From positions 58,946 to 122,945 of the forward strand of contig CAWIMJ010000008.1 of assembly GCA_963837175.1 (NCBI GenBank): a DNA stretch of 64,000 bases. Reading direction: 5' to 3'. How positions within the stretch are numbered: position 1 is the first letter of the stretch; each line of letters begins with the position of its first letter. This document shows, in pieces, positions 18,789-51,445 of this stretch. The translations under genes were made by a program, and so were the position numbers. A model generated the notes under the pieces. The model ran no database searches. It was given only the letters and a program-made list of their open reading frames with translations, and was not told where the DNA came from. This DNA is from an uncultured Nitrososphaeraceae archaeon. GTDB taxonomy: Archaea; Thermoproteota; Nitrososphaeria; Nitrososphaerales; Nitrososphaeraceae.

Positions 18789-18801
18789 TATACTAGTGTT
18801 C

Positions 18802-27925: not shown

Positions 27926-27978
27926 TTCTGGGTGGTAAAATAGAGTCGAATTTGTCCCGCATTCCACCGAACCCGCTA
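27926..27978 (+). repeat. CCACCGAACC-core site, type A
   Basis: 44/53 identical to 39718-39770. Confidence 0.9.
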
Positions 27979-28202
27979 CGATATCAGTTCTTTTTGTTGC
28001 ATTTTTCAGAAAATTCCTTGACAGGAAGGAGTAGTGATATAACAGTGGAGTAAAGAGATAAAAGAGATACAGCGCCGCAGTATCGCTGTCATCTGTGATT
28101 TACACGATTATAATATAGGTTCATGTATTAGCCTTACCGCTACACCCGTCCCACCTTTGATATATCTACAATAGTCGCCAAGAGAGTTACCCAAAATTGC
28201 GA

Positions 28203-28469
28203 CTATGTGTGGTCCCGACTAGATCTGTCCTGCAATCCCTTTTCCGTTACATTCCATAATCTATATTCTGCATGGCTTGGTCTGGGGAATGCTTCTTTAA
28301 CTAAATTCAGCCATTCTAATTCATCTAGGTGATTCCTTACCTCTACATCTGGAAGTCCGCTATGTGAAATTATCTCAGTCTCAAGAACATCCTTCTTAAC
28401 GTCATTCTGCGATAAGTCTGCAACGATATCGAGAATTCTCCTTAGTTCAGACTTAATCATTGTTATCAC
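28203..28469 (-). CDS. Small winged-helix protein
   Basis: EVRNHLDELEWLNLVKE...WNVTEKG. Confidence 0.65.
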   Translation of the reverse strand: MITMIKSELRRILDIVADLSQNDVKKDVLETEIISHSGLPDVEVRNHLDELEWLNLVKEAFPRPSHAEYRLWNVTEKGLQDRSSRDHT

Positions 28470-28797
28470 CTCATGGGGTTATTAAGAATTTAAAGGTATG
28501 ATCTTTATTGTTGAATTTCTCGTCTTACACTTCTCTGGTAGGAAGTATTATCACTTAACTCGACACGCATCACCTGATTTACGTCCTTTACGCCCAGATG
28601 AGAGAAACAGCACTGCTATGCGACATATTAAAGTTTTTAAACAAGGCTCTAAGTTGCAGAAAACTTTTTACCTAGCTTGACTCCTGCTAATTCTGAAACT
28701 TTTTCAAAGAACCAATATCGGTATGCACTCCCTTGGGCCCAAATCAATCTTGTCGCTTTATTTAGGCCCACTCTGTAATACTATATGATAAAATAAG

Positions 28798-29433
28798 TTG
28801 TCTGTAATCGAAGAAGAACAACAAGATCCTATGACTGTATTTCTGTACGCTCTAAAAGCTCCTGAAACAAAAAGACAGTGGCCACGGAGATTAAAGGTGT
28901 TCCTTGATTTCTTAAAACTTGACGGCATCACGATAAAAGAAAAGGCTAAACAATTTATGATAAAAGCACAGCTGAATCCACGATGGGCTCAGGACAACTT
29001 GATGAAGTTCATAGCTTTTCAAATAGAAAGGGCAAGACGAAATGAAATATCAGAAACTACTATTTCAAATTATTATAAAGCGGCTAAGTTATTTTGTGAA
29101 ATGAATGATCTATCACTAGGTTGGAAGAGAATAAGACGTGGCATAACACGAGGAAGAAGAGCAGCTAATGATAGAGCTCCAACAATGGAAGAAATACAGA
29201 AGCTAGTGGAATATCCAGACAGGCGGATTAAAGCAATTATCTACACTATGGCTTCATCAGGAATTAGAATTCGTGTTTGGGATTACCTACAGTGGAAACA
29301 TGTAACTCCTATTACCAATAGTGTTGGAGAAGAAATCATTGCTGCTAAATTATTGATTTATCCAGGAGATCACGAAGAATATTATACTTTTATCACTCCA
29401 GAGGCTTACATCAAAAGGCAATCCAACCTATAA
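28798..29433 (+). pseudogene. Tyrosine recombinase/integrase, C-terminally truncated
   Basis: SAM-like N-domain (YALKAPETKRQW, TISNYYKAAKLFCEMND), DRAPTMEEIQK, MASSGIR (catalytic Arg); lacks HxxR and Tyr. Confidence 0.88.
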
Positions 29434-29494
29434 TATTGAAGATCGATGTGGTGATTTTATTAATAAATATTATTAGATCCAAAACCTGTGAAGA

Positions 29495-29690
29495 TATGTA
29501 TAATATCGCCGGTATCCCCGAATCCCCGGAATACTATAAATTGAGTTCATTTTAGGTTCAATTCTACCGGTGATATCACCGGGGATATTATATTCCAATA
29601 AGTCATATATCACCGGCTAAGAATGGATAAATTCACGCCCAAATTTATCAATCCGGTGATACCGGTTATACCGGAGATATTATCCATACT
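29495..29690 (+). repeat. CCGG-rich short repeats (CCGGTGATA-CCGGTTATA-CCGGAGATA and related)
   Basis: Numerous CCGG/CCCCG units in AT-rich context; three tandem 9-mers at about 29653-29679; palindrome CCGGTGATATCACCGG. Confidence 0.7.
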
Positions 29691-30164
29691 TCTTTTACTT
29701 CTACATCTGTTATCTCATTATACAAGCGACAACAATAAAAGGAAATTTCCAGAGGCGTTTACCATTAAGGACATTCAGTATCTGCAACTGCAAAATGTCC
29801 TCTGAAGAGAGACAATGGTTCATGCTTCAATCCTCATGTAGAACTTATCTTTTATTAAAATACAATAATATGGAAAAGACCTCATAAGATTACATCATCG
29901 GTGGTAATTCAATTTGTACGTAAAAACCAGGAAGATAAAAAGGATATTATATATTATATCGAGATATAATTTAAAAGAAATTCATTGCAATATTTAGTAT
30001 ACCTATAACAGCATTATAACAAATACTTTGAATTCAAATACCGTGCAGTAGTAACAGTTGAAAACAGATGATAACAGAGGTAACAAAGTGATATCAATGA
30101 TAACAAAATTGGTATCAAATGATAACAATAACAATAGCTTTAAGCTTCCATCATATTATATTCC

Positions 30165-31288
30165 TTGAAAAGAAAAGATATGACGATATTAACAAGACAG
30201 GAAAAAGAAAGACTTGTACTAGATCTTTACAACCAAGATAAGACTTATCGTGAAATATCTAAGGAGGCAAGACTATCTCCACGTGATATAGGAGTTATTT
30301 TGAATAGGGTAATTGAAGAGAAGACAGAAGGATTAAAAGAAGAACGACAACAACAAGATAATAACGATGCTGAGAATAACTAAGAAGATTAACAACACCT
30401 ATCACTTTCCACTCAAGCATACAAACTCTTTTCTGAAGGTAAGACCCCATTAGAAGTAGCTATTGCATTAAACCTAAGTGAGTCAGAAGCAACTAAATTC
30501 TGTAGAGAGTATTGGAAGCTAACCAGCTACACAGTCTGAATATAGTTTATGAAGAGACTAAAGGTGATATCGACCCATTTCTAATGTTATACAAATTAGC
30601 TAAGAGAAAAGGTATGGGTATCCAGCAAGTTGTTAATGTTCTTGCAATTGCTAACAATGATTTACCAGCAATTGAAGAGCAACTTAAAAGGCTAAGAAAT
30701 GATATAAGCGCACTGGAATTTCAAAAAGGTATAGATGAGAGAAATTTACACCACTTGAATAATCAAATAGCATCAACAACTAAGCTCTTGAATTCTTTTC
30801 GTATGTCTTGTAAAAGAGAAATAAGAGAAATGGAACATCTACAGAATGAAAAGGCAAGACTCGAGGCTACTGTAACTCAATTTAAGAATAATAATGAAGA
30901 ATACCTTGATAAAATAAAACTGGCAGCTTATGAAGAAGTGGGAAGTGTATTAAATGACAGTAAATTACTATTGAAAGTTGCTACTCTCTCAATAATTGAA
31001 TCATTAAGAAGGAACTCTGAATTATATAATTTTGTGTTGTATGATACTTCAGTTCAAACTGCTTCTGCTGCTTATGGATCTAACTATCTTTCATTAATGT
31101 CAGGACGAGAGCAGTATCAACAAGCATTTAATGATACCTATACTGCTTTGATATTAGAAGAGGCTGAAAAGCTTTACAATGACTTGACAACAAAATTGAC
31201 AAATGACGTTATGGCAGCAGCTGCAGCGATGAGGGCATCATCGTTACGATCACTACCAGCTAATAACACAACCGGAAACTACCTATAA
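30165..31288 (+). pseudogene. HTH + coiled-coil protein of an integrative element (copy 1, disrupted)
   Basis: KERLVLDLYNQDKTYREISKEARLSPRDI; after stops continues STQAYKLFSEGKTPLEVAIALNL; frameshift into ORF 30512-31288. Confidence 0.8.
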
Positions 31289-31927
31289 GATTGATAAGAA
31301 TGATGAAATAGAAGAACCGAGATATAATAATAATTGATCAAAAATTTATAACGATGACCAGCAACTACCAAATGAATAATGATAAATAGATATTATCAAC
31401 AATGCTATCAATAGAAGATTATAATTCATTTCTTATACTAACCAAATAGAATATTAAGCTGGTTTAATTAAAGAAGAGAGTACATCAGAATTAAGATATT
31501 GGGTGGGAATTGTTCCGTATTCTTACCATAATATTCAGAACACGATTTCTGTTCCCATTACCCAAAGGTCTTTTGAGGTACTTCTAGACATAGTAATTAT
31601 ATTATATAATAATTTCCTTTAACAATATACTATATGTTAGGAATATATCGATTTATCACCTTAGAAGGCAACACGCCGCATATAATTAGAACGTGGGAGA
31701 AATAATGAGAAATTGTGCCAATGAAGATAATAATAACAATAATGAGATGTGATGTCCTTAATCATAGATCATAATGATGATGGAAATGAGTTAAAAGAAC
31801 ACTTAACGTCAAATATAATATTGTAAATAAGAAAGTTTAATGGTGTAAAAGCAAAGTATTAGAATAATTAGTTTCTACCCTAGAGAAGTGTGATATAGTA
31901 TTACTTAAACTAGTCAAGTGACAGCTA

Positions 31928-32214
31928 GGCTCTGTTCACTTAACGATAAATCTATAGCGTGAAGATGTCCTATCTCTTCTTTTTATGAATACAAGAAACA
32001 GAACATCTTCAGAATATATTGGCTATGGTCTATATTTTTATTTTTCAGGTCTTTCATTAAGAAAGACATCTGAAAGATTATCGTCTTGTTTTATAAAGAG
32101 AGAAATTATGTATCTGTTTGGAATTGGATTCAAAAGTACAAGCCAAAGAAGAAGATATTGCCAAAACGAAATAAAATACAGGAATTCACAATAGTAGATG
32201 AAACACTGATTTAA
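31928..32214 (+). mobile_element. IS6-family left end and transposase 5' fragment
   Basis: TIR-like GGCTCTGTTCACTTAAC; LYFYFSGLSLRKTSERL, frameshift, VSVWNWIQKY...VDETLI. Confidence 0.82.
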
Positions 32215-32617
32215 GTCAGTCAGCCAGTAATGTTACGTATGGGTTTGGTTAAATCCATGACGTTATAGCAAGAACAATATTTTTATTATTACAAAATTAT
32301 CCCTAGTAACATATCGGACATTGTACTCTACACAAGATCTTAAACACAACCATATACTGTGAGAAGGCTAAAGAATATAATTGAAAGATGCTCCGATAAG
32401 CTATATGCGGACGAGCATCTTCTCTGAGAATTGTCTTAGAATGACTAAAACACCATAAAAGTTAGGGAAATTTGGAGGTACCATATTTTGCTATTCGTCT
32501 CGTTGAATAATAATAAACTAGAATTCTATAAGATTTATTTTCTTCCACAGGCTTCTTTTACAGTCAAACCGGTCTCGCATTCACCGGTAGTAGCACATGG
32601 CATAGTGTTGCATTTGA

Positions 32618-32658
32618 AAATGGATTACATACACTAGTGTATTGCATCCCACCGAACC
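32618..32658 (+). repeat. CCACCGAACC-core site, type B
   Basis: 32 bp identical to 44813-44844; contains palindrome ATACACTAGTGTAT. Confidence 0.9.
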
Positions 32659-32782
32659 TGGGAATTAAATTCTATAACTACTATCTATTTTTTCGAAGTC
32701 GAAATATTTTTGTTAATTCCTCTTAGAATTAAAAAAGTAATATGAAATACAATGAAATGATCTTACGAAAAACATTAAATAC

Positions 32783-35416
32783 TTGCAATCGTCGTTGGTA
32801 ATAATTGTGAATACAAAGATAAATTATCCACCAGAAATTCCATTTAAAATTAATAATATGCAATTAGATATTATTAATATTGATTTTAATGATAAACAAA
32901 TTTTCGGTAAAGAATTGATTTCCTTAACAGCACTAGAAGAATTTGATCATTTTGAATTAGATGTTGGAAAAGATATTAAAATTCAATCAATTGTTATTTC
33001 TACGGCAGCAAGCGAAAATGCATTTGAAATAAAGGAGTTTGATTCAGAAATTAAAAATGAAAAGTTGGAAATTTCTTTAAAAAATAAAGTTATTGAAAAT
33101 GAAAATTTTAGTTTATTGATAAAATATTCAGCAAAAGGTTCAGAACCTGGAAAAGGATTTTATTTTGTAGAACATCCAGAATATCAGCAATATGCGTGGA
33201 CGCAAGGAGAGTCTATATTTTCAAAGAATTGGTTTCCATGTATTGATCATCCTAAACTTAAGTATCCTAGGACAGTATCCGTAATAATACCTGAAAATCT
33301 GACTGTCATATCCAACGGTATATTAAGTATAATGGAAGAAAACAGGATTTCTGATGGTAAGAAAAAAATCACATGGGAAGAAATACATCCTAATCCTGCT
33401 TATTTGACATTATTAGCAATCGGTAAATATCAAGAAATTAGCAATAATCAAAAATATAAACACATCCCATTGAGATATTATGTTCCACCAGGACGAAAAA
33501 AAGATGGTGAAAGGACGTGCAGAAGAACTATCGATATGATGCAAATATATGAAGACTATTTTGGTGTAAAATATCCATATAATAAATATAGTCAGGTTTT
33601 TGCGAAAGACCTTGATGAATATCAGATAGACGGGATGGAACATTCAACATGTACAACACTAGATATCGATGATGTTTTAGCAAAGGAAGATACACCTGAA
33701 TACAGAATCAGAGAAGATGTTATTGCACATGAATTATCACATCAGTGGTTTGGTGATTTGGTCACATGTTATGATTGGCAAGATATATGGTTGAACGAAG
33801 GATTTGCGGCTTTTAGTGAAGTATTATTTTATGAGAAAGTTGAAAAAAACCCACTCAAATCGTTGCTTCAATATCAAACTTATGTTTTAGATTTAATGGA
33901 TCGTTATATAGAAAGAACTAAAACTTCCAAATCAAGAAATAAGTTCCGTCCTATTGTGACTAGAGAATATGATGATCCAGAACAGCTATTTGATTATATT
34001 CCATATAAAAAAGGTGGATTTATTATTCATATGTTCAGGATGTTATTAGGCGAAGAGGATTTTAGGGAGGGTCTAAAACTTTATCTAAGTAGGTTCAAAA
34101 ATAGTACTGCAGAAACTGATGATCTGAGACAAATCTTTGAAGAAGTATCGAAAAAAGATCTTCAACAATTTTTTCAACAATGGATTTTTACAGGGGGTCA
34201 TCCTGTATTAGATTTAATTATATCAGGTAATAACAATAAAATCTTTTTATATTTAAATCAAAAACAAGAAGGTGAAATTTTTTCCTTTCCACTAGAAATA
34301 AAATGTGTGTTTACTGATGATACTTATGATGAAAAAAAGGTATATGTTAATCATAGATCTCTAAACTCTGAATTTACCTTTACGAAAAAGATATCATGGA
34401 TATCAGTTGATCCATATAATAAAATATTAAAGGAATATGACGTATATAGAGTTGATCTTCCCCTTATTATTAATCAGCTTATAAATGGTAATACTCTTTT
34501 TGAAAAAGTTGAGGCAGCTAGAATAATCAGAATAAATTATCTGAATAACAAATTAGTTGAATATCCTGAAGAAATAATTCAAGCATTACAAACCAGCATT
34601 CAATCTAATACTCATTGGAAGGTGTCAGTTGAGAGTGTAAGAACCTTAGGATCAATCAGATTTATTGATGAAAAAATGAATATTCAAGTTTTTAATGTCA
34701 TAAAGAATTCACTAAATCAAATATCTGATTCAAGAGTTAGAAATGAAATAAATGAACAACTAATACATTTTGAGAATATCGATCAATTTGAATTTGCAAA
34801 ATCAATTATCGAAGACAAAATCACAACAATTGATGAAAAAAGAATTAATGCAATTAACATAGGTACAAAAACTCATGAAAAAAATATTAAAGAATCTATT
34901 AGTATTTTAAAGAAGCTATTACTAACAAAGTCATACAAAAATTTATTGGCAAGAGGTGCAATTGAAGGATTAAAGAGGATGGCTATAGATTCCAAAGATG
35001 AGAATATAATAAAAGAAATTGAAAAAATTATAGTAGATAGTACCAAATCAAATGATTCAAGATTAAGAAGAGAAGCAACTTCTGCAATGGGTTATTTGGC
35101 TTCAAGTCATGAAGAATCTAAAAATTCAATAATGGAAAATTTAAAACTTCTTTTACATGATAAATCCATATTTGTCCGAAGTACAGCTTGTGCTGCAATA
35201 TGTAATATTTTTCACAGTACAAATGATAAAGAGATTATAAGTCTATTTAATAATATTATTCAATCTGATTCAAATGACGAAGTAAAAATTACTGCTAACG
35301 AATGTATTAACTTTGTTAAAACCCATGAACATATTAGAGAAAAACCACCAGAGATAGACCCAAAATACCTATCAAAAGAAATTGAGGAATTAGAGAACAT
35401 TGAAACCTATAATTAG
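32783..35416 (+). CDS. M1 family aminopeptidase (aminopeptidase N-like) with C-terminal HEAT repeats
   Basis: WFPCID, DGMEH (GxMEN variant), HELSHQWFGD-x-WLNEGFA, YKKGG; HEAT-like C-terminus. Confidence 0.95.
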   Translation: MQSSLVIIVNTKINYPPEIPFKINNMQLDIINIDFNDKQIFGKELISLTALEEFDHFELDVGKDIKIQSIVISTAASENAFEIKEFDSEIKNEKLEISLKNKVIENENFSLLIKYSAKGSEPGKGFYFVEHPEYQQYAWTQGESIFSKNWFPCIDHPKLKYPRTVSVIIPENLTVISNGILSIMEENRISDGKKKITWEEIHPNPAYLTLLAIGKYQEISNNQKYKHIPLRYYVPPGRKKDGERTCRRTIDMMQIYEDYFGVKYPYNKYSQVFAKDLDEYQIDGMEHSTCTTLDIDDVLAKEDTPEYRIREDVIAHELSHQWFGDLVTCYDWQDIWLNEGFAAFSEVLFYEKVEKNPLKSLLQYQTYVLDLMDRYIERTKTSKSRNKFRPIVTREYDDPEQLFDYIPYKKGGFIIHMFRMLLGEEDFREGLKLYLSRFKNSTAETDDLRQIFEEVSKKDLQQFFQQWIFTGGHPVLDLIISGNNNKIFLYLNQKQEGEIFSFPLEIKCVFTDDTYDEKKVYVNHRSLNSEFTFTKKISWISVDPYNKILKEYDVYRVDLPLIINQLINGNTLFEKVEAARIIRINYLNNKLVEYPEEIIQALQTSIQSNTHWKVSVESVRTLGSIRFIDEKMNIQVFNVIKNSLNQISDSRVRNEINEQLIHFENIDQFEFAKSIIEDKITTIDEKRINAINIGTKTHEKNIKESISILKKLLLTKSYKNLLARGAIEGLKRMAIDSKDENIIKEIEKIIVDSTKSNDSRLRREATSAMGYLASSHEESKNSIMENLKLLLHDKSIFVRSTACAAICNIFHSTNDKEIISLFNNIIQSDSNDEVKITANECINFVKTHEHIREKPPEIDPKYLSKEIEELENIETYN

Positions 35417-35550
35417 TTGAGTATTATAGTTATAGGATAATAAAAATGCAAATATTTTGATAACGTTTTCTTATCTATTTTAGTTCTAATAAAAATTATC
35501 TAATCTCATGATTCTCATACTATCATTCAAATATTATAAAATAAACTTTA

Positions 35551-35634
35551 GAAAACCTTTAAAGCTTAGACTGCGTCTATGTTATTAGGAACCTACTTTT
35601 AGCACCGATATCGGCATGGATTCCACCGAACCCG
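35551..35634 (+). repeat. CCACCGAACC-core site, type C
   Basis: About 80 bp similar to 45835-45915, including 29 identical bp TTAGGAACCTACTTTTAGCACCGATATCG. Confidence 0.9.
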
Positions 35635-36033
35635 TAAATTGTACACATTCCCAGTTAAATGATATAATGTAGTATTGTTTAAAGTTCATTGTAGATAGAA
35701 AATAGAGGGTTCCTTTACCATATAGGATATAATCCCATGCAGTCCGTTCATTGAATATAGGAGGAATACCTTAACATTTTCGAATGCAATTTTTAGTTAT
35801 TTATAAGAAAAAAATAATGAACTAATGATCCAATGTTCCTGATTAAGATTTATATAAATCTGGGAGTTTTCGATACTTCATTATTATGCACAAAAATAAT
35901 AAGATTCAACTATTAATTGTAGTATCTGATTGGACTAATAACTATAATAATAATAAAAAACATGGTAATAAAGCAATCAGGGATATTTTACACAAAGAAA
36001 TCATTACTATGTTTACATAACTGTTAACAGATA

Positions 36034-36843
36034 TCAGATAGTATAAGGAGTTATGTTTCTGATGATAAGCCTCTTTAATTCCACGTTCTCTGGACTGCTG
36101 CCGTTGGTTCTAACCCAGACATAGCTCTTATCACCACTACCAAGATATCTCGAAGGATCTATCATGTAGGATAAAGGTGATGGGTCTGATGTTGATCCGA
36201 TGAATGTGAAGTCATTATCACCATCAAACTTTATCCAGCATTCATACTTTGGTTGTGGCGGTGATCCTACATCGGATATTCTGAACCTTACCGTGTATAT
36301 TTTGCCGTTTTGCATTGACTTGCCAGACGGAAAACTATATGAGGCGTTAGGCGGATCAGTATGGACATTATGGTAGTCTTCTCTGGCATATTCTATATTA
36401 TTATCGTTAGGATGTATTGTGCATCCATATCCTCCGAAGCGGTTTGACGTTGGGTCTGGCTCATTATGTCTTGATCGCAACCTGAGCGACAGGTTATCCA
36501 AAGAAGAATTGGGAATATAGGTTATCTCCATCTCAGCGTTGTAATTGTTTACATGAGTGTATATTCTAGCTCTAGCGCCTGATAGTAAAGCTGTTCCATC
36601 TCCTTTAACTTCAAACCTTCTATCTGAAGCTGAGCCTGCAGCCACTTCGGTTGTGGGATCGTCTGGGTCGAATTGGTGAGCTGATGTTATTACTCTGCTG
36701 TTGCCGTTATTCCAGTGGCCGTTTGTATTAGAGTCCCAGAGAACATCACCACTTGGCGGTACTACTCCATCAGGAACGCATTTCTGCTGAGCCTCATCCC
36801 AATGGAATCCTGGATCACAAGGTGGTAGACTTACTCCTTCCAC
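36034..36843 (-). CDS. Hypothetical protein: Cys-pair module plus beta-rich domain
   Basis: PPCDPGFHWDEAQQKCVPD followed by about 240 aa of beta-strand-rich sequence. Confidence 0.8.
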   Translation of the reverse strand: MEGVSLPPCDPGFHWDEAQQKCVPDGVVPPSGDVLWDSNTNGHWNNGNSRVITSAHQFDPDDPTTEVAAGSASDRRFEVKGDGTALLSGARARIYTHVNNYNAEMEITYIPNSSLDNLSLRLRSRHNEPDPTSNRFGGYGCTIHPNDNNIEYAREDYHNVHTDPPNASYSFPSGKSMQNGKIYTVRFRISDVGSPPQPKYECWIKFDGDNDFTFIGSTSDPSPLSYMIDPSRYLGSGDKSYVWVRTNGSSPENVELKRLIIRNITPYTI

Positions 36844-36878
36844 ATATTCATTAATAACATATTATAATATTAACATAA

Positions 36879-37140: not shown

Positions 37141-37306
37141 ACAAGTCATTTCATTTCAATGCAAATCTAGATGTGATCAAATGAGAGTGTTTTACGAAGG
37201 TTTCTGTTTTGAAGGTATCAAATGAAAATCAGACGACAATAGATGGTATCAATAAAATGTAAGTCTTATAAAGGTGAATTATTTATAGTTTAGGGAAAAA
37301 ATTAGA

Positions 37307-39046: not shown

Positions 39047-39102
39047 TTGCTTTTTTCACATCTCCTTATATGCTTCTAATTTTTTCTCTCTCATCCTATT
39101 AA

Positions 39103-39570: not shown

Positions 39571-39717
39571 TCAGTAGATTACATCAGTATTAAATGACTG
39601 TAGACTATACTTTATAAATTATATAAGAATTACACATTATGACAGAGTTACCGCCTGGATGTAATTTATCTATATATACGTAGTTCAATCTATTTTTCTC
39701 TCTATATAGAGTACATT

Positions 39718-39770
39718 TTCTGGGTGGCATTTCTGAGTCAAATCTGTCCCACATTCCACCGAACCCGCTA
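39718..39770 (+). repeat. CCACCGAACC-core site, type A'
   Basis: Paralog of 27926-27978. Confidence 0.9.
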
Positions 39771-41726: not shown

Positions 41727-42329
41727 TATTTCCTGCCGAACAAATCAAGGTGAGTTAGCAATTACTTCTGATACACTAAAGTCATTGGATAATATTATTA
41801 TGGAAAATATCAGAATGGAAGAAAGTAAAACAAATGATGATGTTATGATATTACCTTTAGTTTAAGAGAGATACATAATCTTTCCTATATTTCTATAACA
41901 TAAAATTCGGGCTAACTATTTGATATAATTATGGATTCTTTATTTGAGTTAAATTCTGTCATTTTACATTCTATCGCATATAGATCAGTCCTGTCTTGCA
42001 TCCAATGGGATTATATTAAATTTATCACACTTGCTCAAGACGAAGGTTGTGCCTTAATTGCTGAAGAATTGGAAGATGAAAGATATAGATGATTTTTTAC
42101 TACTACTTGGAATCTTGCAAATAGATGCATGGGAGTTCTAAAGAGTTTGCTACCTATTCAGGAAGTGGATATTTGATATATTATGCTCTCCGTAGAAGGA
42201 AAAGATCAAATCTGCTCTTGATGATGACATGACAACAAACCAGTTAATCAATTCCAACAACATGCTTTTAACTAGCCCAGAAAATATTTATTGTATAAGT
42301 AGATTACGTAGAGATAAAATGTTGCTGTT

Positions 42330-42779
42330 ATGGTCTCTGAAGATATGATAATGGAATGCTTAACAAATAGCAAAATACCTATACGGTTAGCTTGTATGTC
42401 TATCTCGGATTGGCCTATAGTTGTTTCATTATGGTTTGCATATCTGAATGACAAGGTTTATTGTGCCACACAAAATACAGCTAAGGTAGTCAAATATTTG
42501 AGGAAAAATCCAAAATGTGGCTTCGAAATTGCAGGAGATTCTTTTCCCTATCGAGGCGTCAGAGGTTATGGTAAAGCATCAATAGTAGAAAATAAAGGTG
42601 AAGAAATTCTACGTATGCTGATACAAAAATACTTGACGGGAAAAGAGACAACAATATCATCATTAAAATTATATAAACTACTACTATCTAAAGAGCATCT
42701 GCAAAATGAGGTTGCAATAGAAATTATACCAGCCGCTATTTTTAAGTGGGATTATAAGAAGCGCATGATAAATATCTAG
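42330..42779 (+). CDS. Pyridoxamine 5'-phosphate oxidase-like split-barrel protein
   Basis: RLAC...PIVVSLWF...AKVVKYLRKNPKCGFEI...PYRGVRGYG. Confidence 0.85.
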   Translation: MVSEDMIMECLTNSKIPIRLACMSISDWPIVVSLWFAYLNDKVYCATQNTAKVVKYLRKNPKCGFEIAGDSFPYRGVRGYGKASIVENKGEEILRMLIQKYLTGKETTISSLKLYKLLLSKEHLQNEVAIEIIPAAIFKWDYKKRMINI

Positions 42780-43061
42780 TATCATCATTATGACGGGTTC
42801 AAATCATTCCCATATACACCAAAGCAAGATGCATAATTTGCGCGCTACATATAATTTCAATTTTGAATAATATGAAATATCATAAAATAAGGTAGAGTTA
42901 GTTATCTAATTTTAATCAATGTCATAAAAATATTCAATCCCCTTATTATCACATGGTAACTAAATCAAAGAAGAGGATGACAATTGATATTAAATTTTGT
43001 TCTGCTGTTTAATTAAATGTTAGAATCCAATCTAAGAACCGATATCTTGACTGAGAGAGCC

Positions 43062-43235
43062 GTGGATCATCCTAATCTTGACTTTTTATTTTAACCTACA
43101 CTATAATATTATAGTAGGAAAGAACATTTGTCTACTATAACTAAAGAACAACAACAATTACAAGAGCATGAGCCGATGCAATGACTGTCTTCATGTACGC
43201 TCTAAAGACTCGAAACAAGAAGACAATGCCGTAAA
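43062..43235 (+). pseudogene. Degenerate integrase leader and 5' remnant
   Basis: Similar to 28733-28885: TTG start, EQQQ..., MTVFMYALK..ETRRQ. Confidence 0.75.
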
Positions 43236-43315
43236 GGATGGCCTGCTGTAATGGAGGATATTAATATTAATAGCCTTCTCACAGAAGTAATTATTCTCTA
43301 ATAGAAGGACAAAAG

Positions 43316-44593
43316 ATGAGCTCATATAATAAAAGAATAGTTATACTTGGAGCAGGCTATGCTGGAATATTTTTAGCCACTAACATTGCTCGATATCTCA
43401 AGGGGAAAGCAGGAGAGGTAATACTTATTGATAGAAATCCATATCATCAATTGCTTCAAGAGATTCATTTAGTAGCTACAGGTTTTAGAACAGCAAATGA
43501 AGTAAAAATACCAATTTTAAGATTAATAGATGGAATGGATATAAAATTCATTCAATCTACTACAAAACAAATAAGACCAGATAAAAATTTAGTTGTTTTA
43601 GAATCAACTGAAATTAAATATGATATTCTTATAATATGTCTGGGTGCTTCTACAAAGTATTTTAAAATTAGAGGAGCTGAAGAAAATAGTTTACCATTAC
43701 GATCTATTTCCGATGCATCGATGATCTATGATAGGATAAGCACACTTATCAAATTAAATAAAAAACAAAATATCGTAATAGTGGGAGGAGGAGCCACAGG
43801 TGTGAGCCTTGCAGGAGCACTATCGGATTTTATAAAGGATAGTAAAAAAACAGATAGCCTTTCTATAACAATTATAGAAGCACTACCAAATATTCTTTCA
43901 GGATGGGATGAACGCTTGGTTAAGAAAGTAAATGAAGTATTACATAAAAAAGGAATAAGAATAATGACTAGATCTCCAGTTACTAAAGTTGAAAATAGTG
44001 GCAGTAGTGTTTATCTTAGTGATGATGATGATGCAACAAAGATTCAATCATCTCTTACTATTTGGACTGCAGGAGTTAAAGGGTATGATATACCAATAGA
44101 TCCCGAAGTTGAAAAAACTAAAGATGGCAAAATAATTGTAAATGAATTCTGTCAGATTGATAGATATCCAAATATTTTTTCGATAGGGGATATAGCTGCA
44201 GTTAAAGATGAGAATGGAAAATTATATCCACCTTTAGCTCAGATTGCAATTAGAGAAGCAAAATATCTTTCAAAACTTATCCCAAAACACTTCATTGATG
44301 GTAGTGACGTAAAGTCTTTGCCAGATGAAAAATTTGAATATATTATCAATGTACAATTAATCTCTTTAGGAAATGATGATTATATTGGATTGTTTAACCA
44401 TTATGTCATAAGCGGCAACCTTGCAAAGTTGGTAGAAGAATTTGCAAGGAGTACATATATAAAATCACTCAAGAGTGGTGGAAGAGATATGGATGCAAGT
44501 TTATATGAAGACAATATATTTTCACAGCTAGTATCTGGAATAACTTTTGCACGTTTTACTTTTATGAAATGGATAGAAAAAAAGACACAATAG
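43316..44593 (+). CDS. Type II NADH dehydrogenase-like FAD-dependent oxidoreductase
   Basis: ILGAGYAG, IVGGGATGV, WTAGV, IFSIGD, PPLAQIA. Confidence 0.9.
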   Translation: MSSYNKRIVILGAGYAGIFLATNIARYLKGKAGEVILIDRNPYHQLLQEIHLVATGFRTANEVKIPILRLIDGMDIKFIQSTTKQIRPDKNLVVLESTEIKYDILIICLGASTKYFKIRGAEENSLPLRSISDASMIYDRISTLIKLNKKQNIVIVGGGATGVSLAGALSDFIKDSKKTDSLSITIIEALPNILSGWDERLVKKVNEVLHKKGIRIMTRSPVTKVENSGSSVYLSDDDDATKIQSSLTIWTAGVKGYDIPIDPEVEKTKDGKIIVNEFCQIDRYPNIFSIGDIAAVKDENGKLYPPLAQIAIREAKYLSKLIPKHFIDGSDVKSLPDEKFEYIINVQLISLGNDDYIGLFNHYVISGNLAKLVEEFARSTYIKSLKSGGRDMDASLYEDNIFSQLVSGITFARFTFMKWIEKKTQ

Positions 44594-44812
44594 GTTAAGA
44601 GGAGGGAGAAATGCATAGAACTTATAGCAGGGCCTACGCAGACAGTCTATGGACAGATAGAAACAATCCAAAGGGTATTGGCGCAGATACTAACTCTTAG
44701 AAGAAGAATATAATACCAACAACAACATTTGGTTCACATAACGGTATGTAGAGAGAAAATTAAAGATCTGCAAAGAAACCTCCAGCTATTTAGCCGCTAG
44801 TTTACATTGCAC

Positions 44813-44854
44813 AAATGGATTACATACACTAGTGTATTGCATCCACCGAACCCG
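44813..44854 (+). repeat. CCACCGAACC-core site, type B'
   Basis: Paralog of 32618-32658. Confidence 0.9.
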
Positions 44855-44927
44855 ACCATTAGTTATCTAATGTTAAATTAAGAACTAGAAGTTGAGCCTT
44901 AAAATCATGTCAAATTTGATTCATACA

Positions 44928-45004
44928 CCCTTGGGCCCAAATCAACCTTGTGGCCTTATTTAGACCCATGTTATGATATAATTTGAAAACAGTTGTCCGT
45001 TATC
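44928..45004 (+). repeat. Copy of integrase leader ending after the first codons
   Basis: CCCTTGGGCCCAAATCAA-CTTGT-GC-TTATTTAG-CCCA...AGTTGTC-GT-ATC matches 28730-28809. Confidence 0.85.
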
Positions 45005-45266
45005 CAATCAATGGGTTTTCCACGGAGTAATGCTATTCAATAACACTCAGGGCGAATCATTATCTTTTCTGAATAATAGGATCGGTCTATACAACAGTAC
45101 ATCTGATGTAAATGATTCAGAGTACATCTGACTATTGGAATAGTCTCTCCATTCTAGCATTTCTACAGTTATCTTATTTATCGTCTCGCATTTCCCACAG
45201 TTGGAAACAAAGTCAGATATATTCCAAGTGAATTATCATACTACTACTTCCTACTACTTTCTACTG

Positions 45267-45776
45267 CTACTTCCAATGCCATTCTCTAAGTACAAAATTT
45301 CCACTCTTTTCTGTCTCACCCTTATATATACCCAGCATATTATTCAAAAAAGATAGTTTCCCAGTAGAATTTGTGCTATATGCTGATGCCCCTTGATAAT
45401 CTGTACTATTTCCTACATCTATCCCAGTATAATTTGCCGTTTCACTACCATCCTTGGTCGTTATTACTCCATCCTTGGTCGTTATTAGTCCTGGCGCTGG
45501 TTCACCTTTAGAAATACTTTCAAACTCTCCTGTGTCTGTTACCTCTATGTTACCATTCATCGTTCCATTGGCAGCAAAAGTGAATTGTGTTCTGTTAGGG
45601 CCAATTTCTTTCTGACTTGTAATCATTCCTTTTTCTACAAAATATGGCTCTCCTAATGTTGCCGTCTGAGCATGTGCAGTATTAAGAAGAATAGTAGTCG
45701 CTTCTGTTCCTCCAATAAGTAATAATATGACTGCAATTCCTGCTGTAATACTGATAGTGAATCTCTTTTTATCCAT
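45267..45776 (-). CDS. Secreted uncharacterised 'GKLSFLNN...WHWK' family protein
   Basis: Signal peptide; homologous to 7404-7824 and 62167-62703; 21-bp tandem duplication at 45448-45489. Confidence 0.8.
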   Translation of the reverse strand: MDKKRFTISITAGIAVILLLIGGTEATTILLNTAHAQTATLGEPYFVEKGMITSQKEIGPNRTQFTFAANGTMNGNIEVTDTGEFESISKGEPAPGLITTKDGVITTKDGSETANYTGIDVGNSTDYQGASAYSTNSTGKLSFLNNMLGIYKGETEKSGNFVLREWHWK

Positions 45777-45834
45777 CTTTGATATTGATTTCGTGAACCG
45801 TAGGAATATAAGGATTTCATCTCAAGGACAAAAA

Positions 45835-45915
45835 GAAAACCTTTACAGCTCAGACGTTCTATACAATATTTAGGAACCTACTTTTAGCACCGATATCGTC
45901 ACTAATTCCTCCGGA
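45835..45915 (+). repeat. Type C' site with degenerate core
   Basis: Paralog of 35551-35634; core reads TTCCTCCGGA instead of TTCCACCGAA. Confidence 0.85.
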
Positions 45916-46245
45916 GTAACAAATATCCGTTATTGGTAGGAATTAAGCATATTATACAAATAGATGCTTTCTGTATTTAACTTCTCCAAATTTATGGATA
46001 GGCAACCATTTCTCTTTATAGAATTAATATTGCATATGATCCCATGATTGGGGTTAAACTCTAATCACCGAAGAATGGCGTCTCTCAAGCCATTTCCTCA
46101 TAATGTTGGACGCCTCATCAGCAGAATATTTTGTAACATTAATAAGATATGTAGTCTGGGTGTTTGACCTATAGTCTAGCTTATATTCTGTATCCATTAC
46201 CACGTGAAGCAAAATATATAGATAATCAAAAAACCTTGATTACTC

Positions 46246-46788
46246 ATGCGAATTTCAACGCAAATGGCAAAAGCAATTAATGATCAAATTTCCTATGAGG
46301 CATCATCTGCAAATGCATACATTGCAATCGGATCGTGGTGTGAGAGAATCGGATATGATGGAAGTGCCGCCTTCTTCTTTGAACAAGCTGCAGAAGAAAA
46401 TGGACATATGCTAAAGCTTATCCATTATCTTAATGGTGTTGGAGCAGAGGCGATAATTCCAGCAATTGAAAAACCGCCAAGTAGTTTCGAATCTCTGGAA
46501 TCTACTTTCCAATTTGGCCTAAAGAGCGAGCAAACTGTAACCAAGGCTATTTATGATCTAGTTGATATGGCTGAAAAAGAAAAAGATCGCTCTACATACT
46601 CATTCTTGCAGTGGTTTGTAAGTGAACAAATAGAAGAGGAAACATTATTTCACACAATTCTCCAAAAGTTTGATTTACTTGGAAAAGACAAGCTGGCAGT
46701 ATATCAAATTGACCAATCTCTGGCCTCAGTGAGATCTCAAGTTATGAACAAGCAGACAAGTCTAAAACAACCTTCTACTAAACAGTAA
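46246..46788 (+). CDS. Non-heme ferritin
   Basis: INDQISYE, QAAEENGH, EQTVT, FLQWFVSEQIEEE ferroxidase residues. Confidence 0.93.
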   Translation: MRISTQMAKAINDQISYEASSANAYIAIGSWCERIGYDGSAAFFFEQAAEENGHMLKLIHYLNGVGAEAIIPAIEKPPSSFESLESTFQFGLKSEQTVTKAIYDLVDMAEKEKDRSTYSFLQWFVSEQIEEETLFHTILQKFDLLGKDKLAVYQIDQSLASVRSQVMNKQTSLKQPSTKQ

Positions 46789-47221
46789 GAATTCTTATCC
46801 TTCATATTTTTGCAGACGCCAGAGAAATTTGATAAACACATTACCGCATTGAGAACTGCTGTAGATAATGATGGTATATTAGATAAGGAAGAGACATCAT
46901 ATAATGACATATTTGATGCATTTAGATTGGCTTTGAAGTTTTACCACTTCGAGGAACGTAGCAGTGAATGACGAGGATCCTTGTCCTATTTCCTCCTCCT
47001 GATAAGCAATATTAGAAATTTGTTTGGTTAATGGAAATGTCCGTTTCCGTGCAGTCATTACGGAGCAGCTAGCGACCAACTTGCTAATGTATGGATAAAT
47101 GCTTTGTCCAAGATTAACCAAATCGGAGAGTCTGAAAAGATTAAACAGGTTTTCGAGTCATTGACAGGTGTCAGGCTTCTTTGATTAGAATGGCTTTATA
47201 TCATACCGCACTGAGACTGTC

Positions 47222-48313
47222 ATGTCATCAACGACACAATTTAGCTCTGAATCACGTGGTCAGTATAAAGCGAAGGCTTACGCTGCTGCGAGTGCGAAAT
47301 CGCCGCTTGCCTCCACCACAATCCCGCGGCGCGATCCGGGCGAACACGACGTTCAGATCGAAATCCTTTTCTGCGGTATCTGCCACTCTGACCTCCACCA
47401 AGTCCGTAACGAGTGGAGCGCGATGCCCACTGTCTATCCATGCGTTCCAGGACATGAGATCATCGGCCGTGTCACCAAGGTCGGCTCCGCGGTCACCAAG
47501 TTCAAGACCGGCGACCTTGCTGCAGTCGGCTGCTTGGTTGACTCAGACAGTAACTGTCGCGAGTGCCAGGCCGGTCTCGAACAGTTCTGCCCGCACATGA
47601 CCCTCACCTATAACTCTCCTGACGTGCACCTTGGAGGCGTCACCTATGGCGGCTATTCCGACAGTATTGTAGTCAAAGAGCACTTTGTTCTACGCGTTCC
47701 TTCCAACCTGAATCTCGCCGGAGCCGCGCCTCTCTTATGCGCCGGAATCACAACATACTCGCCCATGCGACATTGGGGTATCATCAAAGGCAAGAAGGTC
47801 GGTGTGGTAGGTCTCGGCGGGCTGGGTCATATGGCGGTAAAGTTTGCTCATGCGCTTGGAGCCCATGTCGTAGTTTTTACCACTTCGCCTAACAAAAAAG
47901 AAGACGCGCTTCGCCTCGGCGCGGACGACGTGGTTATTTCGCGAAATACCGATCAGATGAGCAAGCACGAAGGCAGCTTCGACTTCATCCTCGACGCGGT
48001 CTCCGCCGAGCACGACATTAACGCATACATACAATTACTCCGCCGCGACGGCAACATCACCCTTGTCGGAGCACCGGACAAACCTCATGCCGTCTCGGCC
48101 TTAAGCCTTCTGTTCAAGCGTCGCAGCCTCTCTGGCTCGCTCATTGGGGGTATTGCCGAAACGCAGGAGATGCTCGACTTTTGCGGCAAACATAACATCA
48201 CTGCCGACGTAGAAGTCATCCCAATCCAGAAGGTGAACGAGGCTTATGAGAGACTGTCCAGTGCGGATGTAAAGTATCGCTTTTCCATTGATATGGCTTC
48301 TCTCAAATCATAG
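47222..48313 (+). CDS. Zn-dependent NAD(P) alcohol dehydrogenase (cinnamyl-ADH/YahK-like)
   Basis: CGICHSD, PGHEIIG, APLLCAGITTYSP, GLGGLGHM, DVKYRF; markedly GC-rich. Confidence 0.95.
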   Translation: MSSTTQFSSESRGQYKAKAYAAASAKSPLASTTIPRRDPGEHDVQIEILFCGICHSDLHQVRNEWSAMPTVYPCVPGHEIIGRVTKVGSAVTKFKTGDLAAVGCLVDSDSNCRECQAGLEQFCPHMTLTYNSPDVHLGGVTYGGYSDSIVVKEHFVLRVPSNLNLAGAAPLLCAGITTYSPMRHWGIIKGKKVGVVGLGGLGHMAVKFAHALGAHVVVFTTSPNKKEDALRLGADDVVISRNTDQMSKHEGSFDFILDAVSAEHDINAYIQLLRRDGNITLVGAPDKPHAVSALSLLFKRRSLSGSLIGGIAETQEMLDFCGKHNITADVEVIPIQKVNEAYERLSSADVKYRFSIDMASLKS

Positions 48314-48421
48314 TAACACGACATGGTGGTTCGCTTCTAGCCTTTTTGTTATATTCAAGATTAGGCCACTTTAAGAAAACCTTAAAAACAATCAGATGCC
48401 AGATATGGAATAAATTTTCTA

Positions 48422-49399
48422 ATGAAAGGGATAAAAGTAGACTACGTGCTTATTGCTAGTATTATTCTCTCATTTATCATCATTACTGCATCGTTCGTCA
48501 ACTTTGCATACAGTCAACCAAGTCAAATGAGCTCAAACAGCAGTAAGGAGGGTAATACAAATGCAAATACACCAAACATACAAGATATTCCAACTAAAAA
48601 AGTTCATGTGGGTGACATAGATATTGCATACAAGACCTTTGGTAAGGGCGATCCTATTTTACTGATAAATGGTTACTCCTTCACCATGGACAGTTGGGAC
48701 TCAACTTTATTAGGAACTCTTGCTTCCAATCATACCCTAATCGTTTTTGATAACCGAGGAATAGGAAATACAACCGCTGGTAGTGAACAAAAAGTCTCGA
48801 TAGGACTATTTGCAAATGATACCGCTGGTTTATTAGAAGCATTAAACATCAAGAAAGCAGATGTGCTGGCATGGTCATTGGGCGGAAGAATTGCTCAGGA
48901 ATTGACACTTAATTACCCTGATAAAGTTGGAAAACTTATTCTCTATGCAATAGGTTGCGGTGGTAAGGGATCTGTACCACAAAGTCAGGAAGTTCGTAAC
49001 GAGTTTGTTAATGGAACGGGAACTGCAGAAGACAGAATAGCAAGACTTGTACCATTATTCTTCCCCCAAGAATGGCGCAATGAAAATCCGAATTATCTTG
49101 AAAATATTCCAAAAACTACAGAGACAATTCTTAATCAAACACTTAACAAGCAGATAGAAGCGGCAGCCAATGCTCCAGGTACTTGCGATAGACTAAAAAA
49201 CATAACTCAACCTACACTAGTCATAGTAGGAACTGACGATGCGGCTACTCCGGCAACAAATTCCCTAAGAATGGCAGAACTTATTCCTGGATCTTGGTTT
49301 GTTCAGATTAAAGGAGGAGGACATGGATTGATGTATCAATATCCAGAACAATTCAGCAATATAGTAAAAACCTTCCTAGAAAATACCAATACGCAATAA
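48422..49399 (+). CDS. Secreted alpha/beta hydrolase
   Basis: Signal peptide; FDNRGIG, AWSLGG nucleophile elbow, GTDD, GGHG. Confidence 0.9.
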   Translation: MKGIKVDYVLIASIILSFIIITASFVNFAYSQPSQMSSNSSKEGNTNANTPNIQDIPTKKVHVGDIDIAYKTFGKGDPILLINGYSFTMDSWDSTLLGTLASNHTLIVFDNRGIGNTTAGSEQKVSIGLFANDTAGLLEALNIKKADVLAWSLGGRIAQELTLNYPDKVGKLILYAIGCGGKGSVPQSQEVRNEFVNGTGTAEDRIARLVPLFFPQEWRNENPNYLENIPKTTETILNQTLNKQIEAAANAPGTCDRLKNITQPTLVIVGTDDAATPATNSLRMAELIPGSWFVQIKGGGHGLMYQYPEQFSNIVKTFLENTNTQ

Positions 49400-49726
49400 T
49401 TGTGGTTAACATTTCCTGGAGATTCTTTTGTTCTTGCGTCTCTACTGCATAGCTTTGCTCAGGTATATCATATGCGCCAAAGAAAAGTAGTGAGTGACAA
49501 CGAATGGACTAGATGGCTTCGTATGATGAGGAACTGTTTTGAGCAGGGTAAGATAAGGGTATCCTTTCACATATGTTTCTGCAAACCAATGGAGAATTAT
49601 CATGTGATAATGAAGATGTCATTAAAAGTAATGAATCTACAAAAGGAGTGGGAGTGTAATTTATACAATGAATATAGCTGATTGATTAGTCGCATACATG
49701 ACAGAATCCGCAGCCATGGCTTCAGT

Positions 49727-49747
49727 GTTCAAATCCCACTCTCCGCG
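49727..49747 (+). other. tRNA 3'-end-like fragment (possible att core)
   Basis: GTTCAAATCCCACTCTCCGCG resembles T-loop, 3' T-stem and acceptor strand; no 5' half upstream. Confidence 0.5.
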
Positions 49748-49977
49748 CTTTATGATACCTACCATAGCCGATGTTCAGCTTGGGATGACTTAATTTCTGA
49801 TAATTAGGAGATGTCCTCGACTTGCTACCGTGGATTCAAACCCCATTGCTTGTATTCTATATAATAGTAGAACGTCATATAGGCTACGATCAAGCTTGGC
49901 TCTCAAAATGAAGTCAAAATTGTTTCACATACTACTGGCCCGAACCTAACTATCTATGTACCTTTTTAGAAGCTTTG

Positions 49978-50180
49978 ATAACCTTCACTTCTAGCCTTTC
50001 ACCAATTGTATGCATTAATTTTTCCATCTGTCATTTTTTCTTTCATTGCTTGAATTTCTTGATCTTTCTCAGATAACTTGGCCTCAATGCTCTTACCAAC
50101 TGAATCAAGAGTAGCATAATCTAAGAATGTTAAATACTTCATACATTTGGTAGCATAGATTTCTCTTCTTTCGGATTTCC
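49978..50180 (-). pseudogene. Probable integrase C-terminal remnant
   Basis: EIYATKCMKYLTFLDYATLDSVGKSIEAKLSEKDQEIQAMKEK resembles tails of thaumarchaeal integrases (from recall, not searched). Confidence 0.55.
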
Positions 50181-50227
50181 TTATCGTATAGTATGGAGCG
50201 GATAATAAGTATTTCCATTTGCAGATA

Positions 50228-50247
50228 GGCTCTGTTCATTTAACAAT
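50228..50247 (+). mobile_element. Orphan IS6-like terminal repeat
   Basis: GGCTCTGTTCATTTAACAAT versus GGCTCTGTTCACTTAACGAT at 31928. Confidence 0.7.
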
Positions 50248-50680
50248 GTAGATTAATTATTTTATTATGTATGTCAATAAACATATTAAACCAATTCAGG
50301 ATGTGCTCTAGTTTACAATTAGTTTTCTTTCTACAGGGAAAATAATCATCAAAGCTTTCAGTTCTATCTTTAACGAACTGTATGGTTCATTCAATGATAC
50401 TTTTCCTATATGGCGTATGAAAATGTTGATCTAATTTTAAGAAGTTGCAGGCTTGTGGATAGATACTATGCACCTTGTAACCTTGTTTGGGAACAAGGAG
50501 CTCAATATCTTAATAATGTTGAGGTACGAAACATGTCTGCAGATAAATCGCCCTCGGGGTTCTGAGCTAAAATATACAACATATTATAACACGACGTTTG
50601 AATATTTAATGAATTCTTTTCTCCAAAAAATAATACAAAACTTATATCTTTCATGATAGTGACTATGGATATACATAGAT

Positions 50681-51346
50681 ATGTCAGATTCATTAAATCC
50701 GCGTGATCTGGGAGTTATTGTTAGAAACACACAGCCAGAGGACATTTCTAAAATAGTCAATTTGCAGATCGAATCATATCCGTATCTTTCTCCTTATGGA
50801 AATATATGGCGTTCAGAAGAGCTTGAAAGTCATCTTCGCATTTTTCCGCAAGGACAATTTGTTGCTGTTGAACCAGATGATACTATAGTCGGTTCTGCCA
50901 GTACTCTTATGGTGTCACTTAATCCTGAATATGCAGAACATACGTGGAAAGACATTACTGCAGACGGTTTATTTATAACTCATATTCCAAGCGGAGACAG
51001 TCTGTATTTAGCAGATATATCTACCCATCCAAAACACAGACATGAAGGTATCGGAGGCATGATTATTCACAGATGGAAGGAATTAGTTACGAAGTTAAAT
51101 CTAAGGAGGATGATAGGAGGAGGAAGGTTATTTAACTACTGTGATCATGCAGTCAAGATGTCTCCATATGAATACGTTGGGAAAGTGATGAAAGGGGAAT
51201 TAAAAGATCCTGTTCTCACATTCGAATTGAATATTGGGTTTAGATTTGTCAAAATACTCACAAATTACCTGGATGATGTCCGTTCTCTTAATTACGCTGG
51301 TTTTATAGAATGGTTAAATCCAAATGCGCTCAAAGTCTCTAGCTAG
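50681..51346 (+). CDS. GNAT family N-acetyltransferase
   Basis: LESHLRIFPQGQFVA, THPKHRHEGIG, GGGRL, LKDPVLTF, EWLNP. Confidence 0.88.
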   Translation: MSDSLNPRDLGVIVRNTQPEDISKIVNLQIESYPYLSPYGNIWRSEELESHLRIFPQGQFVAVEPDDTIVGSASTLMVSLNPEYAEHTWKDITADGLFITHIPSGDSLYLADISTHPKHRHEGIGGMIIHRWKELVTKLNLRRMIGGGRLFNYCDHAVKMSPYEYVGKVMKGELKDPVLTFELNIGFRFVKILTNYLDDVRSLNYAGFIEWLNPNALKVSS

Positions 51347-51430
51347 CGGTTTATGGATTAAAATTGACGATATTTTAGGTCCCATACTCAATCGTTTTAT
51401 GAAGAATACAAATCAGGTAGTCGTTGGTCT

Positions 51431-51445
51431 GGGTTCGGTGGATTC
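51431..51445 (-). repeat. CCACCGAACC-core site, inverted copy (type D)
   Basis: GGGTTCGGTGGATTC is the reverse complement of GAATCCACCGAACCC. Confidence 0.8.

Follow-up and report, generated by a model that had tools for sequence, protein, structure and literature searches.

Which process could have placed six identical copies of a 10-nucleotide (nt) sequence, CCACCGAACC, between the genes of an archaeon? The copies lie at 27.9-51.4 kb of a 64-kb stretch of DNA, hereafter the window, which covers positions 58946-122945 of contig C8 in the 3.81-Mb, 58-contig genome (34% G+C) of an uncultured member of the Nitrososphaeraceae. All six are exact, five on the forward strand and one inverted (Table 1), and all fall between long open reading frames (ORFs); shuffled sequence is expected to hold 0.03 copies, none of 100 shuffles got to six, and permitting one mismatch added no further site in the window. 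An initial annotation of this DNA had listed the same positions, which we reproduced, and had read the sites as a system that recombines small gene modules; it overlooked that the repeated core is the 3′ end of tRNA-Lys(CTT). Here we describe this identity and argue that the sites are probably attachment (att) copies and remnants of integrative elements that target tRNA genes, similar to tRNA-anchored islands in other prokaryotes.

The Repeated Core is the 3′ End of tRNA-Lys(CTT)

One genomic copy of CCACCGAACC forms the 3′ end of the tRNA-Lys(CTT) gene on contig C7 (3527-3621), which closes with GTGGG TCCGAAT CCCAC CGAACCC G. From this ending, the 10-mer can be read as the 3′ strand of the T-stem, from its second base on, followed by the 3′ strand of the acceptor stem. 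Over the 45 genomic copies, conservation spans positions -3 (A 38/45, T 40/45) to +11 (G 36/45), and this span corresponds to the end of the T-loop through the discriminator base. The core is thus identical to part of a tRNA gene, which places the sites among the ordinary tRNA-targeted att sites of tyrosine integrases.

A tyrosine integrase adjoins the gene. It begins 58 nt past the tRNA, is encoded in two frames, and carries both the SAM-like N domain (PF02899) and the catalytic domain (PF00589); an unknown gene and a primase-polymerase (Prim-Pol) gene follow before the contig ends. The window itself holds only a truncated homolog of this integrase, placed after a tRNA-Met-type core. Elsewhere in this genome, four more tRNA genes (Met, Val, Ile and one unassigned by ARAGORN) are each followed by a homolog at a distance of 97-246 nt. 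Of the 13 integrase-homolog loci retrieved from further members of the family, 6 contain a tRNA gene (Pro, Ser, Arg, Met, Ile and others).

Genome-Wide Census, Orientation and Partner Switching

A search of the whole assembly and of relatives, with the upstream DNA grouped, found CCACCGAACC to be multicopy genome-wide and across the genus, with recurring classes of upstream arm. The genome holds 45 exact copies, compared with about 1.1 predicted by base composition, while the equivalent 10-mers of the other tRNA genes called by ARAGORN have one to eight copies each (Val 8, Met 7, Ala 6) and the 5′ 14-mers of all 30 ARAGORN tRNA calls one to three. Searching with profiles of the arm classes returned 129 non-overlapping arm+core units (A 64, B 23, D 21, C 12, F 5, E 4), 43 of which have an exact core. 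Their distribution is uneven: 94 are on contigs shorter than 100 kb (1.75 Mb together) and none on four large contigs of 398, 240, 153 and 137 kb. The units are spaced at a median of 2.8 kb, with quartiles at 1.1 and 5.1 kb.

Adjacent units on a contig are co-oriented in 76 of 91 pairs (binomial p 5e-11), a strong orientation bias of the kind for which the initial annotation had proposed a test, and the sites are direct repeats oriented as the tRNA; G007, a complete genome belonging to another genus of the family, likewise has its tRNA-Lys gene and five more cores on one strand. This bears on the other systems to which the sites had first been compared. That they are orphan ends of an insertion sequence (IS) resembling IS6, ends of rolling-circle elements, or Xer/pdif-type sites is very improbable. 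Speaking for such an origin are the palindromes at a fixed distance from the core and a loose resemblance of GGTTCGGTGG to some IS ends, which the initial annotation had suggested; speaking against it are the equality of the core with a tRNA 3′ end and the mere 15 inverted pairs among the 91. The pdif analogy, which predicts alternating inverted sites, was dropped on this ground, and the symmetric 11-6-11 layout of Xer sites is not visible by eye around the core. IS terminal repeats were rejected likewise, as a transposase domain was found in none of 13 ORFs scanned from five of the seven inverted pairs lying no more than 10 kb apart. Nothing of the rolling-circle or HUH type turned up in the analyses, none of which was a search aimed at HUH genes.

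What changes at the core is the partner. Between sites with differing arms similarity sets in at -3 and ends at +11, in agreement with the halt right after the core described at the outset. Thus the A arm at C16:26247 and the C arm at C9:116689 share 139 nt of downstream sequence at 96%, and the A arm at C15:30452 and the B arm at C39:36436 share 243 nt at 79%; several other pairs of sites are alike over 78-128 nt upstream and differ downstream. In contigs from four metagenomes, loose ends cluster at 32618-32621 and at 32658, the final base of a core in the window. Such switching is what recombination inside a core of 10-12 bp predicts.

Modular Arms and a Candidate Promoter

The arms contain a dyad whose centre lies exactly 13 nt ahead of the core; across 42 distinct genomic sites, 3.0 of 5 pairs are complementary, compared with 1.3 in the background. 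As noted for the window before, it is strong in B and C (pair scores 4.2 and 4.0) and weaker in A (2.2), and the D class is equally weak (2.2). The arms behave as modules: extra copies of the 3′ tails of tRNA-Met, tRNA-Val and tRNA-Ala have A-, C- and D-like arms before them, just as the Lys sites do. Among 30 C arms from the seven genomes of the genus, 22 are joined to a Lys-type core and 8 to other cores, and two of these eight represent one junction that is also found in the window (C′, below), with identical downstream sequence in another species.

The C arm opens with AGAAAACCTTTAAAG, which by eye resembles a block of B recognition element (BRE) and TATA box, and a conserved block starts near the expected archaeal transcription start, again as judged by eye. 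Read in this way, the C-type arm looks like a predicted promoter facing outward; a similar promoter-across-core device exists in some bacterial integrative elements. The palindrome of the same arm was considered as an integron attC site, in which folding would be preserved by compensatory change, and was rejected: of the 30 copies 12 are intact, 18 have one-sided changes and none a compensatory one, so a folded attC-like site is unsupported.

At the start of many A arms, part of the unit's own core recurs as a short inverted copy. A conserved acceptor-like stem was tried as an explanation and given up, as the pairing register differs between Lys (GGTGG/CCACC) and Val or Met (GGGCC/GGCCC) sites; covariation in the A arm is ambiguous because of these differing registers and because GGGCCC is itself palindromic. 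A fuzzy search for A arms with three substitutions returned mostly noise, and ARAGORN called no tRNA in the window.

These features could be taken to mean that the units are autonomous small pieces of mobile or regulatory DNA, such as portable promoters or tRNA-like RNA elements, which spread independently of an integrase and merely share a tRNA-like tail. The putative promoter of the C arm and the inverted core copies of the A arms would suit such units, as would the stacking of different tRNA types head to tail with 29-75 nt between cores. We nevertheless consider this account improbable, since no unit was matched in an Rfam scan of 26000-53000 with E up to 1, neither target duplications nor inverted ends were seen in alignments of the units, and the orientation bias together with the tRNA array of G007 fits integration and not scattering.

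The Repeat in Related Genomes

Six other genomes of the genus contain 14-38 exact cores each, against 0-4 for a reversed control pattern, and other genera contain 0-8. In G007, tRNA-Lys(CTT) stands at the head of its array, which with the five additional cores occupies 43.5 kb; upstream of the tRNA lie genes for an iron-containing alcohol dehydrogenase (Fe-ADH) and an SRPBCC protein, syntenic with contig C7, and three of the five additional cores have A-like arms. In two other genera, cores with C-, D- and E-like arms cluster on the same strand. One of these genera has a C arm that agrees with that of the window at 63 of 88 positions, including perfect blocks of 19 and 20 nt, and the D arm is alike at 36 of 45 positions. 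For a 15-mer searched in public genomes, many bacterial matches were among the matches listed, and we take these as chance.

Composition of the Island in the Window

Six Lys-type and two Met-type sites fall in the interval at 27.9-51.4 kb, together with a single junction of a C arm to another core. The interval also holds a Ser-like tRNA fragment, a truncated integrase and metabolic cargo of an ordinary kind (Table 1).

Table 1. Sites, gene remnants and modules in the island (positions in the window).
Feature	Interval	Core or detail	Strand	Basis or remark
4.6-kb segment with site 1 and integrase fragment	27329..31927		.	missing from paralogous copies on contigs C9, C19, C34
Site 1: A-type arm + Lys core	27925..27975	core 27964-27973	+	sequence match
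C-type arm + tRNA-Met-type core CCCTTGGGCC	28656..28739	core 28730-28739	+	attP-like position, directly before integrase fragment
Truncated tyrosine integrase homolog	28765..29409	ORF 28798-29433, 211 amino acids (aa)	+	43-51% identity to tRNA-Lys integrase
Site 2: B-type arm + Lys core	32601..32660	core 32649-32658	+	soil-metagenome contigs diverge at 32618-32621 and 32658
Single-gene module between sites 2 and 3: M1 aminopeptidase	32783..35416		+	protein domain match
Site 3: C-type arm + Lys core	35544..35634	core 35623-35632	+	BRE/TATA-like block at arm start, by eye
Site 4: A′-type arm + Lys core	39717..39767	core 39756-39765	+	sequence match
Site 5: B′-type arm + Lys core	44792..44854	core 44843-44852	+	sequence match
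A-type arm + tRNA-Met-type core, integrase-leader-like remnant	44890..45007	core 44928-44937, remnant 44938-45007	+	
C′ unit: C-type arm joined to CCTCCGGAGT	45832..45917	arm 45832-45913	+	nhmmer E 1e-17
tRNA-Ser(GCT)-like 3′ fragment, T arm + acceptor strand	49700..49748		+	by eye, one mismatch in last 12 nt
Site 6: E-type arm + Lys core	51431..51478	core 51432-51441	-	inverted relative to sites 1-5

The pairing of arms that had been described for the window is reproduced: A and A′ are 83% identical over 53 nt (44/53), B and B′ 97.6% over 41 nt, and C and C′ 80% over 80 nt. The genes between the sites had been called largely unrelated, and comparison of the modules, and of the halves A-B-C and A′-B′-C′, by blastn and tblastx gave no other meaningful similarity. 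No meaning could be found in the recurrence of the order A-B-C-A′-B′-C′ that the initial annotation had emphasized: the two members of a pair are not mutual best matches among the genomic copies, and the order recurs in no other genomic array. The probability of such a repeat, calculated post hoc from the class frequencies among the 129 units, is about 0.008, and we treat the order as coincidence.

Two further details needed revision. At 45908, a sequence does start directly after a C-type arm; rather than a degenerate Lys core it is CCTCCGGAGT, which does not resemble a tRNA end. The junction and the next 35 nt (45908-45945) are identical at locus L182 (G001:C170) of another species of the genus, for which reason we regard C′ as a conserved alternative junction and not as a decayed Lys core. 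The integrase leaders thought to follow A and B′ exist in substance, each of them after a separate tRNA-Met-type core at 28730 and 44928, the latter 75 nt past the Lys core of site 5. The C-type arm at 28656 was assigned by eye, because the Lys C profile matches it weakly (E 0.19), and the truncated integrase that follows had no match in Pfam. The 22-nt trailer of site 1 is 95% identical to the sequence after the true tRNA-Lys gene.

The tRNA-Ser-like fragment is probably the att scar of another type of element, judging from its sequence. Around site 6, a 1.9-kb segment (50630-52532) is 99.8% identical to C16 49838-51739, and the C16 copy lies just beyond the integrase that follows tRNA-Met; the identity may stem from a recent duplication or from the assembly of two near-identical haplotypes. 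Weak A-arm-like matches also occur beyond the island, at 2236-2282 and 12941-12974, both on the reverse strand; directly after the former comes CCACCAAGCC, identical to the core in 8 of 10 positions. A degenerate A unit at about 41987-42003, at the edge of a duplicated segment described below, is not significant (E 3).

Other repeats are present in the window. A 117-nt repeat at 18676-18792 and 23749-23865, with about 45 genomic copies at 88-100% identity, forms an inverted pair around fragments of DDE transposase genes (19258-21730; Pfam DDE on 21451-21723) and looks like a family of miniature inverted-repeat elements or IS ends. Positions 31928-32250 and 50225-50475 are the two halves of a repeat family of about 700 nt with dozens of copies at 65-89% identity. 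Elsewhere these halves are inverted and about 200 nt apart; in the window 18 kb separates them and they point the same way, which hints at either an ancient inversion or a pair of partial copies. Beyond the island, a gene for a family-B DNA polymerase (54911-57250) is found in all seven genomes of the genus at 81-91% protein identity. An attempt to establish synteny through this gene found it alone conserved in the five contigs retrieved, from four relatives that proved too distant, and since the flanks differ among these contigs the gene may ride on a mobile element.

Integration Remnants or an Active Cassette System?

How could one tRNA end have been multiplied in this manner? In the explanation that we favour, mobile elements would integrate into the 3′ end of tRNA-Lys(CTT) by a tyrosine integrase, with CCACCGAACC(CG) as the part of the tRNA gene where strands are exchanged, and the 35-80 nt before it would be an arm on the side of the element, available in the interchangeable types A to F. 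In the circular element, with the order arm, core, leader and integrase, the predicted promoter of a C-type arm would read over the core into the integrase gene. Each integration would leave one extra arm+core unit in the same direction, and repeated integration into any existing core would build one-way arrays of small modules, most of which would since have lost their integrase or never have carried one. Duplication, insertion and inversion would then have scattered the arrays, and some activity may continue at the present day. Under this explanation, the interval at 27.9-51.4 kb is such a composite island of captured modules.

Several observations weigh against it. The integrase beside tRNA-Lys (C7 2223-3469) is divided between two overlapping frames, with 156 aa in the N part and 267 aa in the catalytic part, while each family homolog consists of one ORF of about 390-460 aa; the split gene could be a pseudogene, the result of a sequencing error or a case of frameshifting, and no intact Lys-specific integrase was found in the genome. 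Recognisable integrase remnants follow just 5 of the 129 units, 20-1345 nt downstream, and none of 33 ORFs of at least 110 aa from 51 kb retrieved around the G007 island has an integrase domain. The array of the window is not adjacent to the tRNA-Lys gene in the 58-contig assembly. Neither an excision product nor an empty site at the core was seen in short contigs from four soil and rhizosphere metagenomes. Joints that touch the core do occur there with 27-49 nt on the shorter side (27-32 letters for 32658>44896, 32658>45871 and 35616>39756), and so short a side makes further copies of the repeat, rather than deletions, their most likely source. Gaps in cover by these contigs carry no information.

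The borders of larger rearrangements also fall off the cores. Site 1 sits in a 4.6-kb insertion with borders away from its core; the joint 27328>31928 was present in all four metagenome runs, in one short contig each, and these contigs may be paralogs. Contig C12 carries a 95.7% identical duplicate of 42022-44610, and C28 and C34 have a module of 1.16 kb in common; the ends of both likewise miss the cores, by distances that range from some tens of bases up to about 230. No near-identical copy of a module with units at both ends was found in a new context, the complete matches being segmental duplications and the remaining ones ending off the cores. Finally, Lys, Met and Val-like cores (the last with one mismatch) stand in tandem within about 170 nt at C9 116689-116830 and C16 26247-26110, and since each has its own short arm, no room is left between them for an element.

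An active cassette system in the manner of integrons, in which a few integrases working in trans would excise integrase-less modules of 1-5 kb with one arm+core each, take up others and rearrange them at any resident core, and in which the sites would be functional parts instead of scars, would account for the one-way arrays with their median spacing, for the five integrase remnants downstream of 129 units, for the combinatorial pairing of arms with downstream partners, for the conservation of arm types across genera with perfectly conserved blocks, and for the presence of 14-45 cores in all seven genomes of the genus. We find it doubtful all the same, as it is at odds with the lack of circular or empty-site junctions in the short metagenome contigs, with the 18 one-sided and zero compensatory changes in the palindrome of 30 C arms, with module genes that run in both directions, with duplicated modules that do not end at cores, and with the failure to find an intact Lys-specific integrase in the genome. 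It is unlikely that this genus of soil ammonia-oxidising archaea runs a tRNA-anchored cassette system with more than 100 docking sites per genome and a few trans-acting integrases; were that so, the arms, which occur with several tRNA 3′ ends, would be portable promoters and specificity tags. The system would then be the counterpart of integrons in archaea, with tRNA att sites as its building blocks, and if modules are mobilised in trans, the sites would offer a route of gene exchange to archaea without known plasmids or conjugation.

Accumulated remnants of integration into tRNA genes thus remain the explanation that we prefer, and under it a striking repeat of a group of soil nitrifiers becomes the by-product of a known process. 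The integration site of one tRNA gene has been multiplied to more than 100 copies, which mark a variable, repeat-rich part of the genome in this genus. With the core as a simple sequence tag, islands and the borders of modules can be mapped in these often fragmented assemblies, and the arm types common to different tRNA sites hint at how elements change their target.

Comparison with Known Systems

Integrons carry one-way arrays of small modules, each ending in an attC site that is variable, partly palindromic and conserved at its end. The arrays described here have the same one-way small modules, partly palindromic sites and a halt of similarity at a conserved end; they differ in that evidence for a folded site is missing, genes run both ways and the core is the end of a tRNA. 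The integrase domains found are generic, and an integron-type integrase was not identified among them. Acinetobacter plasmids carry pdif modules, whose sites are bound by XerC/XerD and are inverted in alternation. Small gene modules bounded by short recombinase sites are common to both cases; unlike pdif sites, those described here are mostly direct and derived from a tRNA gene. The initial interpretation as a module recombination system holds as far as site-specific recombination sites, the small gene modules that they bound, the switch of similarity at the core and the integrase remnants after some sites are concerned, and fails in the analogues that it proposed.

A literature search that joined the genus names of the family with integrase or tRNA-Lys terms, preprint supplements not being covered, returned no description of the repeat. 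A recent paper on the genus named in the search speaks of islands with integrases at their flanks, and its text gave no match to the word "tRNA". Closest among known systems are the integrated elements of Thaumarchaeota, which according to a survey have short att sites with a median of 17 bp, 39 of 68 of them in tRNA genes and nearly all of those at the 3′ end, and form arrays by re-use of sites (Krupovic et al., 2019; PMC6563490). Table S2 of the survey contains two tandem elements at the tRNA-Lys(CTT) of a Nitrosotenuis, with att at the same position of the tRNA; CCACCGAACC appears in that table on neither strand (PMC6563490). The thaumarchaeal elements, as described there, share with the present case a short att core at the tRNA 3′ end, an adjoining tyrosine integrase and tandem insertion at one site. 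Where the survey has one or two elements per tRNA, the genome studied here has 45 exact cores and 129 recognisable units, mostly without integrase, and compared with the survey's elements its arms are typed and interchangeable.

The tycheposons, islands beside tRNA genes of Prochlorococcus with scattered partial tRNAs and broken integrases, are a second comparable system (10.1101/2020.12.28.424599). They too are described as islands from repeated integration into tRNA genes, and as elements with integrase, replication and cargo modules, the cargo behaving like plug-in cassettes. The integrase and Prim-Pol genes at tRNA-Lys recall this arrangement, a likeness of architecture. Tycheposons have hosts in another domain of life and keep about 40 nt of the tRNA, whereas 10-15 nt are kept here; the non-tRNA arms of our sites are, in contrast to what is described for tycheposons, typed and common to sites for different tRNAs.

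A tRNA-anchored island made of remnants of integrative elements is thus of a known kind. What is unusual in the present case is its scale, the very short tRNA-derived core, the typed arms common to several tRNA targets and the scarcity of integrases, which together make it a variant worth a closer look.

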